Below, piece after piece: positions 11,520 through 18,339 of a DNA stretch of 32,000 bases; position 1 is the first letter of the stretch, and each line of letters begins with the position of its first letter. The stretch is taken from NCBI GenBank assembly GCA_048886185.1, contig JBHLKY010000032.1, forward strand, positions 5,818-37,817, written 5' to 3'. The translations under genes were made by a program, and so were the position numbers. The notes beneath the pieces are model-generated. The model was given only the letters and a program-made list of their open reading frames with translations, did not search any database and had not been told where the DNA came from. This DNA is from Candidatus Hermodarchaeota archaeon (lineage in GTDB: Archaea > Asgardarchaeota > Heimdallarchaeia > Hodarchaeales > Hodarchaeaceae).

Positions 11520-13184
11520 TCATTTATACATATAAATATCTGTATATTGCTTTCTAATAGCTTTTTTGTCTACCTTACCAACACTAGTTCGTAAGATTCT
11601 TTCTGTAAGAATGATATCATCAGGTAGCTGCCACTTAGCAAATCTCTCTGCAAGATGTCCCCTGATTTCATCCTTATTGATTCTTGATTTGAATTCGTTT
11701 CGTAATACTACTAAAGCTAGAGGTCGTTCTTCCCATTTGGGATGAGGACATCCAACAACAGCTGCATCAAGTATTGCAGGATGTGAAACTAGGGCGTTCT
11801 CTATATCTACAGATGAGATCCATTCCCCACCACTTTTTATTAAATCTTTAAGTCGATCTGTGATCTTTAAGAATCCATCAGCATCCATAGTTCCAACATC
11901 TCCTGTTCTAAAGTAATTGTCTTCAGTGAACTGAACCTCACTCCCAGGAGCATTATAATATCTCCCTGAAACCCAAGGTCCACGTAAAAGGATTTCCCCT
12001 GCAGATTTGCCGTCATGAGGGAGTTCCTTTCCCTTTTCATCAATTATTTTCACATCTAATCCGACTACAACATATCCTTGTTTCCTTTTATGGTTCCACC
12101 TTTCCTCCTCTGTAAGGTTCTCTTCTATGAATGGTGGGAGACGATTTAAAGTTACTATTGCATTTGCTTCGGTGGATCCGTATGAATGTATAATATCTGC
12201 TCTGGTAATATCCCAGAAACCTTTCATCATTGTAATTGGAGGTTCACTTGCCCCTGTGATGAACCGTAATCCAGACAGATTAGGTTTTAAATCCATTTTA
12301 CGGATATATTCAAGCATTGGCATTAAAATCGCAGGAGCGCCATTCGACAAAGTAACTTTTTCTTGAATATAAATTTCAATGAGCTCATCAAGATCATTCA
12401 AGCTAAATCTACCAGGAAAGACTAACTTAGCCCCTACCAACGTAGCTGCATATGGCGTTCCCCAACCTAGAACGTGAAACATAGGTACAATTTGAAAAAG
12501 ACAATCTTTTATAGAAATGGAAGCATTAGCGGCATAGGTTAGCGCTTGTAGATACACATCGCGATGAGAATAGTAAACTCCCTTAGGTCTTCCTGTGGTA
12601 CCACTAGTATAGCAGGCTGAATAGGCAGAGTTTTCATCAATATTCAGCCACTCATATTTTGGTGTCGAATTACTTACTAGCTCTTCATAACTGTAGATTG
12701 GGTTCAGTGATGTTTGCATATCGCTTAATGGTTTATCAGTAATAATTATATATCCTTTCACGGTTTTACAGGTGGGAGCAACTTCCTCTGCAACATGAAG
12801 AAGATTTTCTTCTACAAAAACAAATTTAGTTTCTGCGTGGTTAATTATATAACTTAATTCTTGCGGAGCGAGGCGTAAATTTAAGAGAAGCATGACCGCG
12901 CCAGTACCAGGAATACCAAAGTAGATCTCAAAATGTTGGTATGTATTCCAAGCGAGAATCCCTATTTTATCACCAATTCTAATACCTAAAGAATAGAGAG
13001 AATTGGCTAAACACATAACACGCTTGTAACAATCATTATAGGTATAACGAAATAGAGACCCGTCATTTATCCTACAAACAATTTCTTGTTTTCCGAAGTT
13101 TCTTGCCCCATGTTTGAGAATGTTTGTTACATTTAACTGATAGTTAACCTGTGACGTAGCTGGAAAACCCTGAACAATTTTCAT
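11520..13184 (-). CDS. Medium/long-chain fatty-acid-CoA ligase (AlkK/DmdB-like AMP-binding enzyme)
   Basis: YTSGTTGRPKG, PMFHVLGWG, YGSTE, RTGD, DRLKDLIKSGGEWISS, HPKWEERP, GKVDKK. Confidence 0.95.
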   Translation of the reverse strand: MKIVQGFPATSQVNYQLNVTNILKHGARNFGKQEIVCRINDGSLFRYTYNDCYKRVMCLANSLYSLGIRIGDKIGILAWNTYQHFEIYFGIPGTGAVMLLLNLRLAPQELSYIINHAETKFVFVEENLLHVAEEVAPTCKTVKGYIIITDKPLSDMQTSLNPIYSYEELVSNSTPKYEWLNIDENSAYSACYTSGTTGRPKGVYYSHRDVYLQALTYAANASISIKDCLFQIVPMFHVLGWGTPYAATLVGAKLVFPGRFSLNDLDELIEIYIQEKVTLSNGAPAILMPMLEYIRKMDLKPNLSGLRFITGASEPPITMMKGFWDITRADIIHSYGSTEANAIVTLNRLPPFIEENLTEEERWNHKRKQGYVVVGLDVKIIDEKGKELPHDGKSAGEILLRGPWVSGRYYNAPGSEVQFTEDNYFRTGDVGTMDADGFLKITDRLKDLIKSGGEWISSVDIENALVSHPAILDAAVVGCPHPKWEERPLALVVLRNEFKSRINKDEIRGHLAERFAKWQLPDDIILTERILRTSVGKVDKKAIRKQYTDIYMYK

Positions 13185-13210
13185 GAAATATTCTCCTTTC
13201 TTAATAGTGA

Positions 13211-13227
13211 TTTAAGGTATCCTTAAA
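13211..13227. promoter_or_regulatory. Perfect palindrome, candidate operator upstream of the acyl-CoA ligase
   Basis: TTTAAGG-TAT-CCTTAAA, 27-43 bp upstream of the minus-strand ATG at 13184. Confidence 0.5.
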
Positions 13228-13321
13228 CATTATATCTTGTCTAACTTTTTTATTATTACTAGAAGTTTGATATTTACTTAGTGATTCTTTAGTTAGAATT
13301 AATGTTTCAGTTCATAGGATG

Positions 13322-13343
13322 AGTCTTTTCAAAGAAAAAGACT
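13322..13343 (-). terminator. Hairpin downstream of cysH, candidate terminator
   Basis: AGTCTTTT / AAAAGACT 8-bp stem with 6-nt loop and T/A tracts, about 70 bp after the cysH stop. Confidence 0.4.
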
Positions 13344-13413
13344 TTTTAGATTCTGAAATGATTTTTCAGCACAGGTAGAGATGCAAAGAATCCATCGTTT
13401 TTTAAAAACTTGA

Positions 13414-14157
13414 TTACCTTTTATTTGAATTTAAACTAGTTTTTGCATCCTTCTTTTCATAAAGATGAATACCACATTCCAGTTTCATAAAATCTTTCCA
13501 TCTTCCATCTCTTTCATCCCCACCTTCATCTACAGGTGAAGTACAAGGTTTACAGCCAATACTGTAATAATATTGATCATGAAGTAAATTATATGGTAGA
13601 TTATACTTTCTAATATACATCCATGCATCGTCTCGTGTCCATTTATACAGAGGATTGATTTTAATTACCCCTCGCTGATCAATTTCAATGCTTTCAATTT
13701 CTGCTCTAGTTATTGATTGATCTCGCCTGATTGCGCTCAACCAAACCTGTTTTGATCTTAATATTCTAAGTAATGGCTCTACTTTTCGGTAATGACAACA
13801 AATATCTGGGTTAGTTTTATAGGGTTCCTTTCCAATTAGGTTCTCTAGCTCTGATTCAGTAAAAGAAGGTTGAATTGTTTTAATATTCAGTTTCCATTCT
13901 TTTAATAATTTATCTCTCAATTTTAATGTTTCTTCAAAGTGAAACCGTGTATCAATAAAAAATATTTCAATCTCTGGAGCATATTTCTTAATAATACTCA
14001 ATAAGATTATACCACTATAACCAAATGCAGTTGTAACTGCCATTTGATCTTTAAATTCCTCATAAGCTAGTTTGACTATATTGTCTGCATCCATATCAAT
14101 GAATATTTGCTTTAGACGTCTTACTGTCTCAATTTTTTCTGTTATTGTGAATTTCAT
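13414..14157 (-). CDS. cysH: Thioredoxin-dependent APS/PAPS reductase (CysH), [4Fe-4S]-binding type
   Basis: TTAFG, FIDTRFHFEET, CC pair (PDICCHYRKVEPL), AIRRDQS..R, KINPL..W, SIGCKPCT, C-terminal ECGIH. Confidence 0.93.
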   Translation of the reverse strand: MKFTITEKIETVRRLKQIFIDMDADNIVKLAYEEFKDQMAVTTAFGYSGIILLSIIKKYAPEIEIFFIDTRFHFEETLKLRDKLLKEWKLNIKTIQPSFTESELENLIGKEPYKTNPDICCHYRKVEPLLRILRSKQVWLSAIRRDQSITRAEIESIEIDQRGVIKINPLYKWTRDDAWMYIRKYNLPYNLLHDQYYYSIGCKPCTSPVDEGGDERDGRWKDFMKLECGIHLYEKKDAKTSLNSNKR

Positions 14158-14190
14158 ACACTTTCCTCAGAATAGGCTAAAGACAAATCC

Positions 14191-14218
14191 TTTAGAAACT
14201 ATGATCTTTTAGAAACTA
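14191..14218. repeat. 11-bp direct repeat upstream of cysH
   Basis: TTTAGAAACTA at 14191-14201 and 14208-14218, 34-61 bp upstream of the cysH start. Confidence 0.5.
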
Positions 14219-14308
14219 CAAACACCGCGTCACACAAACAAGAACTTCAACCTATAAGACCAAAATTTTGATTATCAGCTAACCATTTTCACTCTTCACT
14301 TAATGACT

Positions 14309-15145
14309 TTAGAAGGGAATTGGATCATCATAGAGAGCTTCTAGTGCGTTTTGGTAAAAAAATGATTGCCAAACCTCTTCACGAATAGCATATTTCCATA
14401 GATTAATAGCTTCTTCGAATTCCACTAAGGGGTAGTCTGTTCCGAATAGACATCGTTTTTTAAGATAAGTATTGGCTGCTTGAATAAATTCAGGTGCCAT
14501 GTACTTTGGCCGAAGAGCACTAAATTCTAGGTAAATATTGGGATGACGTTGAGTTACTGCTAAAATTGGAGGCCCAAATCCATTCCCACCATGAGAAACA
14601 ATAATTTTGAGTTCAGGGAAATCCACTGCTATTCTATCAATACACTGTGGACTCCCATGCCACATGTAAGCTCCCCTCCAGAAGTGAATCGATCCATGAA
14701 TTATTATTGGTTTCTGTAACAATTCACAAAGTCCGTAAATTGCATAAAATGACTTATGATCAGCATCTAATTTTGAAATAAAGGGTGAAAGATAAATAGC
14801 GGCATATTCTTCATCACAACATCGTTTTATTTCCTTTAAGGCAGATAATATCCCATCACAAATATCTACTCCACCTACTGGAATAATTTCATTAAAAGAT
14901 CCAGCGATTTCCTTGATATGTTCATTCTCTTCTCTGTTCCGTCCTGAAACAATCATTTTTTCTATACCTGATTTTTTAACTAAAATAATGAATTCTTCAA
15001 CAGGAATGGGAGTCAGTCTTGTTTTCATCTTATATAATTCAATATAATCTTTGAAATAAGGTTTTATTTCAATTGTCCAATCTTTAAGTAAACATTCTGT
15101 CCTCAATCTTACTCTAGCATCAACAATTTTCATTTTACATCCCAA
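14309..15145 (-). CDS. Amidohydrolase_2-family TIM-barrel protein lacking the N-terminal HxH motif
   Basis: IIIHG, IIVSHGG, NIYLEFS, LFGTDYP; N-terminus IVDARVR in place of IDxHxH. ATG at 15133 is a likelier start than the TTG at 15145. Confidence 0.85.
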   Translation of the reverse strand: MGCKMKIVDARVRLRTECLLKDWTIEIKPYFKDYIELYKMKTRLTPIPVEEFIILVKKSGIEKMIVSGRNREENEHIKEIAGSFNEIIPVGGVDICDGILSALKEIKRCCDEEYAAIYLSPFISKLDADHKSFYAIYGLCELLQKPIIIHGSIHFWRGAYMWHGSPQCIDRIAVDFPELKIIVSHGGNGFGPPILAVTQRHPNIYLEFSALRPKYMAPEFIQAANTYLKKRCLFGTDYPLVEFEEAINLWKYAIREEVWQSFFYQNALEALYDDPIPF

Positions 15146-15214
15146 GAATTTCTATTACAAAAATTACTATTATATTTTGCAGTTATTCTATAATCATTCT
15201 CTTTTTTTTTGCTG

Positions 15215-16222
15215 TTAAACTTTTCCTAGAATTCTAGCTGGATTCCCAACAACAATTACTCCATCTGGAACATTTCCAGTAACAACAGAACCCATACCTA
15301 CTACTACCCCGTTTCCAACGGTAATCTTATGTCTAATTGTAGAATTAGCCCCAATCATACAATTACTACCTATTCTAGCTCCACCAGTCACAATAGAATT
15401 TCCTAATATCATAGTATCATGACCGATACGCACATTATGAGTAACATGAGCCATAGGTCCGATAACACATCTATCACCAATTTCTGTTAGATTATCTTTG
15501 TTTGCTGCTCTATCAATGACAACACACGATCCTATAAAAACGTCATTACCTATTTTAACTCTTCCATCTTGGGGAAATCGAACTATCTTTCCATTTTCAT
15601 CCCAGACAGCGCCTATACTCGGAAATCCTATAACCACATTAGGCATTATGATTACTCTCTCTCCAATATCGACAAAATTTCTTTCAATCACTGCTGTAGG
15701 ATGAATAAAAGGTGCTATAATTCCTTCTCCATGTTTACTCAATATTTCTCGGATATGTTCTAATTTTCTGTGCCAAATATGCCCAGTAACTAGAAAAACC
15801 TTATAATTTTCTTTAACATACGAAATAGTAATTGAGTCAATATTTACTAATGGACTAAACTTTTTTTTAATTTCCTCTTCACTCTCAAAGTAACTGTCAT
15901 GTGAATTTACTGGATAACTAGGCACTATCAGAATTATTTTTTGACCCGGACGTAATAATGACAGTATAAATATATCATCTTTTAAACACTCCTTGACATC
16001 TATTAGCACAAAATCCCAATTATATCCAGTATGAGACTTTAAATATTGCTTTATATCGAGTTTTGAAAGATCAACACTGAAATAATCAAAATGGTCTTGG
16101 AAAAACTCTTTCCTGAATTGATCACTCCCAGAACTTATATGAATAACAGTTTTTGCTCGTTCTTGTTTCAATGTATTTAGTATAGTTTCCCACATTGGAG
16201 ACCAAAGACTTTTAGAACTCAA
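15215..16222 (-). CDS. Fusion of a degenerate class I methyltransferase-like N-terminal domain and an LpxD-like left-handed beta-helix N-acyltransferase
   Basis: N-terminal VIHISSGSDQF...SVDLS...IILIVPSY; C-terminal PQDGRVKIGNDVFIGSCVVIDRAA...AHVTHNVRIG hexapeptide repeats ending VGNPAR; TTG start with AGGAG SD. Confidence 0.8.
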   Translation of the reverse strand: MSSKSLWSPMWETILNTLKQERAKTVIHISSGSDQFRKEFFQDHFDYFSVDLSKLDIKQYLKSHTGYNWDFVLIDVKECLKDDIFILSLLRPGQKIILIVPSYPVNSHDSYFESEEEIKKKFSPLVNIDSITISYVKENYKVFLVTGHIWHRKLEHIREILSKHGEGIIAPFIHPTAVIERNFVDIGERVIIMPNVVIGFPSIGAVWDENGKIVRFPQDGRVKIGNDVFIGSCVVIDRAANKDNLTEIGDRCVIGPMAHVTHNVRIGHDTMILGNSIVTGGARIGSNCMIGANSTIRHKITVGNGVVVGMGSVVTGNVPDGVIVVGNPARILGKV

Positions 16223-16584
16223 ACAGTTCTACACTCCTATTAAACCTTACACCTTGTCGAGATTTCCTTTACTTTTTTAGATAGTTGGATTCCCTATTCT
16301 CTTACTCATATTGATGATTGTGTCAATTCAATTTGTTCTCCACTAAAATGATTTCGATAAATGATATTTTTAATTATCAAGAAATTTGATGACCTCTTTT
16401 CACAGATAAACAGAAATAAAAATACTAATGGCTCCCTATATACTAGAAAAAAATTAACATTAGAAATTAGAAATAGAAATTCAGTTAAAATAGAAAAAGG
16501 GAGTTACTGATGAAATTCAACTAGTAATGAGGAAAGATATCTTGTTGATAATTATTTACAATGACATGTAAATTATTAGCATTA

Positions 16585-17136
16585 TTATTTCTTTTTTATA
16601 AGTCCCTTAATTCTTGGATCTAATTCTCTTAGTCGTTCAACTTCCTCATCGGTTAAATCCCTAACCTTTTTTGCCGGAATCCCCATATATACTCCAGATT
16701 CTAAACAGTCCTTAGTAACAAGCGATAGAGTTCCAATGACACATTCTGGGGCAATTTTAACAGAAGCATCAATAACAGCATTCGTACCAATATAGCTATT
16801 TTTTCCTATGACTGTTCCTCCTCTTATTTCGTTTTTATGAGTTGAATAAATTGTCATCACATTTGGTGAAATAAATACACCATCCTCCACAGTGACTTCT
16901 CTAGCCACTGTAGCTCCAAATCTCAATACAACATTATTACCTATCTTATTTATTCCCGAAGAACGGAAATAACTATCAACGTAAACATTATTCCCAATTT
17001 TCGTCCCTTTTTTAAGTAAGACATAATTTTGAATGTCAATATTGTCACCAACTACACATTCATTTTGAATAATATTATATGTACCAATACTGAAATTTTT
17101 CCCGTGAATAAAGTCAGCAGCTATACTGTTTTCCAT
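16585..17136 (-). CDS. Hexapeptide-repeat (LbetaH) acyltransferase, sugar N-acetyltransferase-like
   Basis: Repeated [IV]G.N motifs, VFISPNV, TVIGKNSYIGTNAVI, VYMGIPAKK. Confidence 0.88.
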   Translation of the reverse strand: MENSIAADFIHGKNFSIGTYNIIQNECVVGDNIDIQNYVLLKKGTKIGNNVYVDSYFRSSGINKIGNNVVLRFGATVAREVTVEDGVFISPNVMTIYSTHKNEIRGGTVIGKNSYIGTNAVIDASVKIAPECVIGTLSLVTKDCLESGVYMGIPAKKVRDLTDEEVERLRELDPRIKGLIKKK

Positions 17137-17247
17137 TTTAATTCATCCCTTAAAAATCGAGATTGGACTTTTTCCTAAGCATATAAATTTTGTTAAAAAG
17201 AATTTAAAATCGACCTCAAAGATAGATTCTTTGATCTAGTAGGTTAC

Positions 17248-18339
17248 TTAATTTAGTTCATCAATAGCTAATTCAAGCCTCTCAAGTCCTTTCTTTAATT
17301 CTATTGTCTCTCCTCCAAAACCAATACGGAAGAAAGAATCCATCTTGAAGCAATAACCGGGAACAGTGAATGTTCGATATTTTTCCACTAAAAGACGACA
17401 TAATTCTCTTGATGATTCATAAAATCGGGGAAAACATGTAACACTACCTTCAGGAGGAATGACATTTAAGTAATCGTTATTTTTAACCCAGTCCAAGACT
17501 AACTTACGATTAATGTTTACCCGCTGTAATATTCCAGGTAAATAATCTTCCTTCCTACGAAGAAGTTGGAGAGCTATTGATTCGTTTATAGCGGAGTTGC
17601 ATATCGTTGTTTGCTCTCGTACCTTCAAAATACCTTTTATAATCTCTTTTTCACAAGCTGCTGACCATCCTATTCTTATTCCTGGAACTCCATAAACCTT
17701 AGACATTGTAGAAACGCTGATTACATTGGAACTTAAGCTGGCTGCAGGAGGTAGGGGGTCTCCAAATGTTAAATCCCGATATGTTTCATCCATCAACATA
17801 TAGATCCCTCGTTCCTCAACCATTTCTATTATGTTTTCCAGCTCTTTTTTTGTTATCATAGATCCTGTAGGATTATTAGGATGTGTCAGACAAATTAATT
17901 TGGTATTTGGTTTAATCAATGCTTCCAATTCTTGTAAATTTGGTTTGAATTGTTCCTCATATCTTAAGAAGAACAGATCCATGGATCGCTCAAGGGATTC
18001 GGGAATGTACCAGAATGAGGGGTAATTTGGACATTCTACAATGATATGATCTTCTATCTTTGTTAGAGAGGCGATTATTGAAAAAATAGATTCAGCTGCA
18101 CCTGTTGTTATTGCGATGTTTTTCCAGCTGAGACCCTCATAGAGATTGGCGATCTGTTTTCTTAGTTCAGGGCTACCGAGGTGTTGAGTGTATCTTAATT
18201 CTACATTGTTTAAATCTAGATCCAACTGTCTAAATTTAAGGAATTTCACCCCACTTTCCCCAATATCATAATCCACTTCAAATTGGTACTTATCAAACCA
18301 TTCTTCCAGAAGCATTCGTTTAAAGGGCATAATAATCAT
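17248..18339 (-). CDS. PLP-dependent aminotransferase class I/II
   Basis: HPNNPTG, DETY, SKVYGVPGIRIGW (PLP lysine), FRIGFG; ATG at 18330 is an alternative start. Confidence 0.93.
   Translation of the reverse strand: MIIMPFKRMLLEEWFDKYQFEVDYDIGESGVKFLKFRQLDLDLNNVELRYTQHLGSPELRKQIANLYEGLSWKNIAITTGAAESIFSIIASLTKIEDHIIVECPNYPSFWYIPESLERSMDLFFLRYEEQFKPNLQELEALIKPNTKLICLTHPNNPTGSMITKKELENIIEMVEERGIYMLMDETYRDLTFGDPLPPAASLSSNVISVSTMSKVYGVPGIRIGWSAACEKEIIKGILKVREQTTICNSAINESIALQLLRRKEDYLPGILQRVNINRKLVLDWVKNNDYLNVIPPEGSVTCFPRFYESSRELCRLLVEKYRTFTVPGYCFKMDSFFRIGFGGETIELKKGLERLELAIDELN

Follow-up and report, generated by a model that had tools for sequence, protein, structure and literature searches.

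Among the described enzymes with which the protein reported here can be compared, LpxD (E. coli b0179; structures 3eh0 and 4ihf; models TIGR01853 and PRK00892) shares with it a left-handed β-helix (LbH), a loop of the form GFG..W.KIPQ.G.V.IG, an IDR motif, the histidine of an AHNV motif and a linker helix, with LpxD Gly257 in the position of its Gly280. The protein is the 335 aa product of a gene that starts with TTG and occupies positions 15215..16222 (−) of the window, i.e. the whole stretch of 32,000 nucleotides that we analysed, which is contig C32 material from a 4.84 Mb, 96% complete genome of a Candidatus Hermodarchaeota archaeon. Nucleotide-sugar 3-N-acetyltransferases of the WlbB/WbpD/QdtC/FdtD type (8e62, i.e. 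Pcryo_0615, 3mqg, 7s3u and 4mzu) are its best or tied structural matches (Z 16.7–14.6), and like it they have a short LbH, no domain for docking acyl carrier protein (ACP) and a C-terminal coil of the GNPA type. These enzymes use coenzyme A (CoA) thioesters, and their similarity in sequence is weaker, at 40 bits for 8e62 and 39 bits for WlbB compared with 72 bits for LpxD. The N-terminal domain is homologous over its whole length to small (approximately 185–240 aa) class I methyltransferases, which occur alone or fused to GT2 or GT1/GT4 glycosyltransferases (P0121, P0127, P0149, P0275 and P0140).

The protein departs from LpxD in carrying a methyltransferase fold in the place of PF04613, in having no ACP helices and in ending with a coil of CoA type. 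From comparisons of sequence and predicted structure, we think it rather probable that it is an acyl-CoA-dependent amino-sugar N-acyltransferase descended from a bifunctional glycan-tailoring enzyme, the methyltransferase half of which is now dead. It is an unusual variant of enzyme types that are already known, probably one that modifies a sugar, rather than a system of a new kind.

The β-helix acyltransferase domain

The C-terminal half (aa 173–335; 15218..15706 (−)) was assigned as an LbH acyltransferase domain (Hexapep) by Pfam, NCBIfam, structure match, alignment and tree. Hexapeptide repeats were the only Pfam match in the protein (aa 173–330), and with 78.3 bits against a cutoff of 27 for PF00132 it exceeds the gathering score of this superfamily and has its LbH fold, the predicted model showing a regular β-helix over aa 173–324 with Z values of 13–17 to many LbH structures. 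The top NCBIfam profile was LpxD PRK00892 (113.7 bits, E 9e-33, against a curated cutoff of 207), and the second LpxD model, TIGR01853, gave 99.9 bits against a cutoff of 242.5, the LpxD match being confined to profile positions of approximately 150–313. The NeuD/PglD/VioB profile TIGR03570 ranked second with 96.6 bits, under its cutoff of 160.8, and was matched only at positions 95–202, the LbH part, leaving the N-terminal nucleotide-binding domain of that family unmatched; LpxA came after both with 62.8 bits, again below its curated cutoff. An initial annotation of this DNA had named LpxD and NeuD/PglD as the profiles to be compared, and the comparison came out with LpxD ahead (113.7 versus 96.6 bits).

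We aligned the domain with E. coli LpxD and LpxA, bona fide LpxDs, Asgard LpxD-like proteins and the neighbouring 183 aa LbH protein. The best sequence match among solved structures was E. coli LpxD 3eh0 (E 5.8e-19 over aa 183–328, ungapped over aa 183–306), and the resemblance is far above chance. The 3eh0 alignment pairs His262 with the catalytic His239, Gly280 with Gly257 and the loop GFPSIGAVWDENGKIVRFPQDGRV with the corresponding loop of the E. coli enzyme, which bears out the initial claim that this half follows the LpxD pattern, catalytic histidine included. The LpxD-type (acceptor) loop, aligned to E. coli LpxD, is GFPSIGAVWDENGKIVRFPQDGRVKIG (aa 199–225; 15548..15628 (−)) and the catalytic-histidine motif, which contains His262, is PMAHVTHNVRIG (aa 256–267; 15422..15457 (−)); the strings quoted in the annotation, this loop, AHVTHNVRIG (aa 258–267) and, in the N-terminal half, IHISSGSD (aa 27–34), are all present in the protein. 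The loop, IDR, His262 of AHNV and Gly280 are unchanged throughout the clade of nearest relatives described below, within which Pro256 and an extra histidine with no LpxD counterpart, His259, are also invariant, and Gly255 stands at the position of LpxD Asp232.

The linker helix (RKLEHIREIL; aa 151–172; 15707..15772 (−)), which was modelled with low confidence, corresponds by homology to the helix that ends the uridine-binding domain of LpxD, NPYLTYARMAQIL in E. coli, so that the β-helix module can be described as a truncated LpxD. The uridine-binding domain itself (PF04613) gave no match in the protein. At the other end, profiles and alignment assign the terminal coil VVGMGSVVTGNVPDGVIVVGNPARILGKV (aa 307–335; 15218..15304 (−)) to the CoA-dependent hexapeptide acetyltransferase type; the last coil reads VGMGSVVTGNVPDGVIVVGNPAR, a pattern known from those enzymes, canonical LpxDs differ in sequence there, and aa 283–334 were matched by the profiles for WbbJ, Vat, DapH and maltose acetyltransferase. 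The protein stops 7 residues past GNPA and has none of the C-terminal ACP-recognition helices, which make canonical LpxDs (E. coli LpxD, P0051 and P0083) approximately 30 residues longer.

The protein falls outside the LpxD family, as four of the five defining features that we tested (a curated score, PF04613, the ACP helices and a genomic LpxC) are absent and only the LbH with its loop and catalytic histidine is present. LpxC (PF03331) had no match in the 96% complete genome, although control genomes gave matches, and the LpxD N-terminal domain PF04613 was likewise not found in this genome; lipid A synthesis is therefore not the role. That the protein is nevertheless a true LpxD, acting with an acyl-ACP donor in a lipid-A-like pathway, would fit with LpxD giving its best sequence and profile matches and with the single PP-binding open reading frame (ORF) of the genome, but we regard it as extremely improbable and largely refuted already, given scores far under both cutoffs, the lack of the uridine-binding domain and of the ACP-recognition helices, a genome without LpxC and PF04613, and a clade that the tree places outside the canonical LpxDs. 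Archaea are already represented among automatically named 'LpxD family' clusters, so that an LpxD-like protein in one of them is in itself no novelty; what is new is the fusion to a pseudo-methyltransferase and its traceable origin.

Foldseek with the full-length model returned methyltransferases alone, and the β-helix matches given here come from a structural search independent of Foldseek. For aa 170–329 the best match (Z 16.7) was 8e62, a stand-alone N-acetyltransferase of the diacetamido-glucuronate pathway, followed by LpxD structures (Z 15.0–15.6) and by WlbB, 7s3u and FdtD (Z 14.6–15.1); on the predicted structure alone, LpxD and the short-chain sugar N-acetyltransferases are tied. A maximum-likelihood tree was built from 126 LbH cores, the rows of which were picked by similarity to the query. 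In this tree the window protein pairs with P0002 (support in the Shimodaira–Hasegawa-like approximate likelihood ratio test, SH-aLRT, 99) in a five-member clade, P0001–P0005 (SH-aLRT 95), in which it is P0001 and P0003 branches first. The clade stands beside, not inside, a group of 101 LpxD and LpxD-like rows (SH-aLRT 93), and both the WlbB-like second domains of P0006 and P0007 and the neighbouring NeuD-like LbH are separate from it. The position of E. coli LpxA within the LpxD-like group, at the end of a very long branch (1.38), was treated as an artefact. Clustering of this half with ordinary short-chain sugar acetyltransferases, which had been named as the result that would overturn the LpxD assignment, was thus not seen in sequence or tree, both of which place it by LpxD and apart from the WlbB- and NeuD-like reference domains, short-chain enzymes being poorly sampled in the tree; on structure alone, the question ends in the tie described above.

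Two further sets of proteins with related parts were noted. P0006 and P0007 (325–326 aa, metagenomic) consist of a truncated LpxD-type LbH, in which linker helix, loop and AHNV histidine are all kept, followed by a WlbB-like LbH, and P0006 passes the PRK00892 LpxD subfamily cutoff (234 versus 207 bits) without a uridine-binding domain. In addition, L008:1489-2274 (−) in G069 and L010:1432-2352 (−) in G042 encode Asgard LpxD-like proteins of 261–306 aa, which have a uridine-binding-like N-terminus (ITFLKSPKY...DDPRLAFAKI) and lack the C-terminal ACP helices.

The eroded N-terminal domain and its relatives

By homology and model, aa 1–150 (15773..16222 (−)) have the class I S-adenosylmethionine (SAM) methyltransferase fold in six strands, and we interpret the domain as catalytically dead. 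Neither Pfam nor NCBIfam gave a match to aa 1–150, and no methyltransferase family reached E ≤ 0.01. A search of aa 1–172 against 1.84 billion cluster representatives yielded 149 matches at E ≤ 1e-3, most of them 180–200 aa long, and the ten homologs that were scanned all carry Methyltransf_11/12/23/25/31 (Pfam). The AlphaFold model of aa 1–172 is a six-stranded α/β fold with a mean predicted local distance difference test (pLDDT) of 83.2 and a predicted template modelling score (pTM) of 0.80, alignments that mixed in LpxD-like proteins of 245–310 aa and short LbH proteins having been set aside for folding because these were misaligned onto the methyltransferase half. Every top Foldseek match of this model was a class I methyltransferase (probability 1.00), and an independent structural aligner gave Z values of approximately 12 and root-mean-square deviations of approximately 3 Å to Hen1, NodS and others; the fold has six strands rather than seven because strand β3 is deleted. 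By descent and fold the domain is a class I methyltransferase, though almost certainly not by activity. Homologs, model and Foldseek agree in this with the initial annotation, which had a class I methyltransferase-like domain of about 150 aa replacing the uridine-binding domain and had proposed a structure prediction; with the methyltransferase fold in the model (pLDDT 83.2) and seven members at ≥90% identity, the N-terminus is neither a non-Rossmann fold nor the product of misassembly, the two faults that had been allowed for.

The Foldseek matches also included the N-terminal domain of the pseudo-methyltransferase anamorsin (2yui), another class I fold that serves as a structural module and that is not known to bind SAM. 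It has no specific sequence relationship to the domain described here, and its partner domain and biology are different.

The consensus of the family reads ILELGCGTGQFA ... Y.G.DFS..AI ... F...D ... LEVLEHI..D ... SVP.FD...HVR.F ... RY, and at these sites the window protein has VIHISSGSDQFR, IDVKECL and HDSYF. Its motif I remnant, VIHISSGSDQFRK (aa 26–38; 16109..16147 (−), from the alignment), stands where the closest intact relative, P0003, has IIELGCGTGQLGK, and differs from the consensus ILELGCGTGQFA by G30S, C31S and G34D: LELGCGTG of the family has become HISSGSD, with two of the three motif I glycines replaced. In 15 of the 32 family columns with a conservation of ≥80% the residue is changed, the substitutions including G30S, C31S, G34D, G49S, E75D, H79C, R110S and Y122F. 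The alignment hence upholds the eroded glycine loop IHISSGSD of the initial annotation and extends the erosion, as helix αB and strand β3 are also deleted.

The junction of this 18–19-residue deletion lies at aa 53–56 (16055..16066 (−)), as judged from pairwise alignments and the topology of the model, and falls between Ser53/Leu55 and Asp56 (E 3e-18 with P0121 and 7e-18 with P0003). A multiple alignment had put the gap over β3 and the following loop, which the pairwise alignments with P0121 and P0003 corrected to αB and β3. In the class I fold β3 is an edge strand that lines the adenine pocket, and its loss is structurally tolerable and removes part of the cofactor site. In all, the domain shares with the small methyltransferases the fold and W11, Q35-F36, D51, S53, D56-I57, E78, D83, P101, H108 and F112, but is without the motif I glycines, αB, β3 and approximately 25 N-terminal residues, and has H79, R110 and Y122 changed. 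The motif II Asp51, invariant in the family alignment, and the motif III Asp56-Ile57 are among the retained positions, together with Gly32, Glu78, Asp83, Pro101, His108 and Phe112.

Such persistence (Asp51, Asp56, Gly32, Glu78, Asp83, Pro101, His108 and Phe112), a confidently predicted fold and the keeping of the domain in two lineages that are 59% identical overall could mean that it still works, either as a divergent methyltransferase or as a regulator through which the acyltransferase responds to SAM or S-adenosylhomocysteine. We consider this improbable, as G30S and G34D have removed glycines of motif I, one wall of the adenine pocket has gone with αB and β3, and no methyltransferase hidden Markov model scores. 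In addition, the loop of P0002 is a different sequence, IIGNEHEIIDK, which argues that the motif I site is not under selection.

The architecture search that the annotation had suggested found the methyltransferase–LbH fusion in just three clusters, P0001, P0002 and P0003, the sources being a near-length query search and N-domain searches with the query and with P0003. P0003 is a metagenomic (ENA) protein of 403 aa with 41% identity over 99% of the query and an intact fusion; it has the same domain order and belongs to the same clade, keeps IIELGCGTGQLGK, αB, β3, LEH and HIRYF, passes five Pfam methyltransferase models, whereas the window protein and P0002 score on none, and is presumably bifunctional. 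P0002, the closest ortholog (NCBI MFX0061758.1, labelled Candidatus Hermodarchaeota and named 'DapH/DapD/GlmU-related' by NCBI), is 59% identical overall. The LbH domains of P0001 and P0002 are 81.9% identical, their methyltransferase cores 33.3% and their motif I loops 21%, and identity to P0003 is 57.9% and 29.1% for LbH and core respectively, which indicates that constraint was kept on the acyltransferase and relaxed on the remnant, most of all at motif I. Both Hermodarchaeota proteins share the deletion of αB and β3, but their motif I sequences differ (SSGSDQFRK versus GNEHEIIDK), neither of them being of the glycine type. The first branch of the clade is P0003, so that the simplest history is one fusion in the ancestor and decay later on. 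P0004 and P0005, which stand alone, would in that case reflect secondary loss or incomplete gene calls; the tree also allows other orders of events.

No full-length ortholog was found in 41 relatives or in 400 genomes of the phylum, searches in which G020, G042, G069 and G075 gave LbH-only matches, the fusion was absent from the 20 congeneric genomes searched, and a scan of genome contigs for the gene produced just two distant bacterial LbH loci; it is a rare accessory gene. This rarity, with absence from the 20 congeneric genomes, and the clear decay of one domain might suggest that the whole gene is a functionless remnant on its way out. We hold this to be very improbable: the frame is open in all seven members of its cluster, the catalytic motifs are all intact, and identities to the ortholog of 82% for the LbH and 33% for the N-domain point to strong purifying selection on the LbH. 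These seven sequences (a ≥90% identity cluster) are identical or 99% identical and come from several contigs in NCBI and Logan assemblies, and a misassembled fusion is unlikely because near-identical copies were obtained from separate assemblies. The TTG start of the 335 aa frame has GGAG 11 nt upstream, and some gene callers choose the ATG at codon 10, giving a form of 326 aa. Literature searches on archaeal LpxD-like proteins, methyltransferase–LbH bifunctional enzymes and Pcryo_0615 found nothing relevant, and an Atlas feature search gave no usable match.

The case is of interest as a clean and datable passage from a bifunctional tailoring enzyme to an enzyme with an attached pseudoenzyme, for which a comparison set is at hand in the intact, ancestor-like P0003, the stand-alone forms and two independently eroding descendants. 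It also shows that the catalytic module of LpxD, without the parts that bind uridine and ACP, circulates as a cassette fused to methyltransferase or WlbB-like domains and reaches archaea that make no lipid A. At present this is a refinement at the level of annotation, not a new biological principle.

Proposed reaction, donor and acceptor

The product would be a two-domain cytoplasmic enzyme, the LbH of which (aa 173–335) would trimerise with active sites between subunits, as in other LbH enzymes, and in which His262 would deprotonate the acceptor amine for its attack on an acyl thioester. Since the protein lacks the ACP-docking helices of LpxD and ends in a coil like that of CoA-dependent acetyltransferases, acyl-CoA is the most likely donor. 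A short chain, acetyl or another, is somewhat favoured, as the structural tie with sugar N-acetyltransferases and the CoA-type coil make a short donor no less likely than a long one.

For the acceptor, the most likely candidate is an amino sugar, which could be linked to a nucleotide or already form part of a glycan. A sugar is favoured by the glycosyltransferase fusions and neighbours of relatives, by the fusion to a WlbB-like domain in P0006 and P0007, and by the neighbours of L008 and L010. Active relatives of the N-domain are fused to GT2 (P0275 and P0276), to GT1/GT4 (P0131, P0135 and P0140) and to tetratricopeptide repeats (P0181). The host genome itself has an intact 200 aa relative of the dead domain (ILDLGCGQG...ISVPNYD) at C29:12256-12663 (+), in locus L025, where it sits between a GT1/GT4 glycosyltransferase gene and the gene for a multi-pass membrane protein without a Pfam match. 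The LpxD-like gene of L008 adjoins a glycosyltransferase-like ORF and that of L010 an ATP-grasp-like ORF, both judged by eye.

On this reading, the N-domain would be the relic of a SAM-dependent glycan methyltransferase, and the ancestor a bifunctional methyltransferase–acyltransferase like P0003. In the lineage of the window protein and its Hermodarchaeota ortholog the SAM site would have decayed until the domain no longer methylated, and the remnant would persist in folded form where LpxD has its uridine-binding domain, plausibly as a scaffold or to hold substrate. Of this account, the architecture, homologies, eroded motif and uneven conservation of the domains are shown by the data, and the lost activity, the donor, the acceptor and what the dead domain does today are inferred.

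Several points weigh against the acyl-CoA-dependent amino-sugar N-acyltransferase with a dead N-domain. The arrangement of the two domains in the full model is of low confidence (pTM 0.55, linker pLDDT below 50), and the retained Asp51, Asp56, Gly32, Glu78, Asp83 and His108 may allow some residual ligand binding by the N-domain. Short-chain acetyltransferases are under-sampled in the tree, because its rows were chosen by similarity to the query. The genome has one PP-binding (ACP-like) ORF, of 89 aa (PF00550, 25.6 bits, over the cutoff; C3:104208-104393 (+), L022), so that a donor of ACP type is not impossible. The genes nearby include none for a glycosyltransferase or for nucleotide sugars, but encode an aminotransferase, a second LbH, an Amidohydro_2 protein, CysH and a fatty-acid-CoA ligase, which might indicate a small-molecule acceptor. 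As a separate observation, the PP-binding ORF lies approximately 550 bp from an ORF for a 155 aa LbH acyltransferase (C3:104946-105281 (−), L002).

A bolder version, in which the dead domain has been re-used as an acceptor-binding module, in the part played by the uridine-binding domain of LpxD, and the enzyme N-acylates an amino-sugar lipid or glycan specific to Asgard archaea, possibly with fatty acyl-CoA from the adjacent ligase, seems to us a speculation with little probability. If true, it would be a step of archaeal glycolipid acylation made from LpxD-derived parts and unrelated to lipid A. More generally, if the acceptor of the proposed N-acyltransferase belongs to a glycan or glycolipid of the Asgard cell envelope, the gene would mark a surface modification that varies between strains within the archaea most closely related to eukaryotes.

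The genomic neighbourhood

Pfam and genome comparison define a variable cassette at 13414..17136 (−), which comprises a CysH-type phosphoadenosine phosphosulfate (PAPS) reductase (13414-14157), an Amidohydro_2 protein (14309-15145 (−), Pfam), the fusion gene and a 183 aa LbH acyltransferase (16585-17136). It is flanked by a ligase that passes the cutoff of the long-chain fatty-acid-CoA ligase subfamily (11520-13184) and by a class I/II aminotransferase (17248-18339); the ligase, reductase, 183 aa LbH and aminotransferase genes are all co-oriented with the fusion gene. Ligase and aminotransferase genes are kept across the genus, and in G015 (L019) and G017 (L021) they lie 100–150 bp apart without the four middle genes. 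In G010 (L017) the slot holds a Caroten_synth-like protein, a PAPS reductase, ComA (phosphosulfolactate synthase), a Lyase_1 enzyme and a PylC-like ATP-grasp protein; G008 (L018) has the same ORF layout as G010, layout alone being compared, and the slot of G009 (L020) holds a Caroten_synth-like protein and MttB. The interval 13185-17247 between the ligase and aminotransferase genes appears as a hot spot for variable cargo. Since the cassette of four middle genes is variable and does not amount to a conserved pathway, little can be concluded about function from the neighbours.

This bears on the alternative that the LbH acylates a non-sugar, small-molecule amine supplied by the neighbouring genes, in an acylate–transaminate–deacylate logic like that of DapD/DapH and with acyl-CoA from the adjacent ligase. 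The co-oriented aminotransferase, second LbH, Amidohydro_2, CysH and fatty-acid-CoA ligase genes would suit such a pathway, as would the NCBI name of the ortholog and the finding of no glycan-synthesis gene in the window. We take it as unlikely, though it is the alternative that we would dismiss least readily: ligase and aminotransferase genes are adjacent without the middle genes in G015 and G017, unrelated cargo fills the slot in G008, G010 and G009, the DapD_Ac profile scores 47 bits compared with 114 for LpxD, and intergenic gaps of 69–362 bp give no sign of a tight operon. The amidohydrolase, moreover, is not co-inherited with the fusion gene, as its family is widespread in bacteria and the fusion is confined to three clusters.

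Upstream of the fusion gene lies an AT-rich gap of 362 nt (16223-16584), unusually long for the region, in which there is no Rfam match and no ORF of ≥60 aa. Rfam gave nothing within the whole window, and a scan found no terminator-like site. A σ70 promoter scan of the window found 15 sites with 15.0 expected, i.e. chance, with a model that is not applicable to archaea.

Members of the amidohydrolase family share up to 70% identity with the window's protein, and the named matches are all bacterial (Syntrophus, Deltaproteobacteria, Marinimicrobia and others), which suggests that this gene is of bacterial origin. No amidohydrolase homolog carried the Hermodarchaeota label of P0002, and there was no sign of linkage to P0002. 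The Amidohydro_2 protein starts with KIVDARVRL, having Arg-x-Arg where the family usually has His-x-His.

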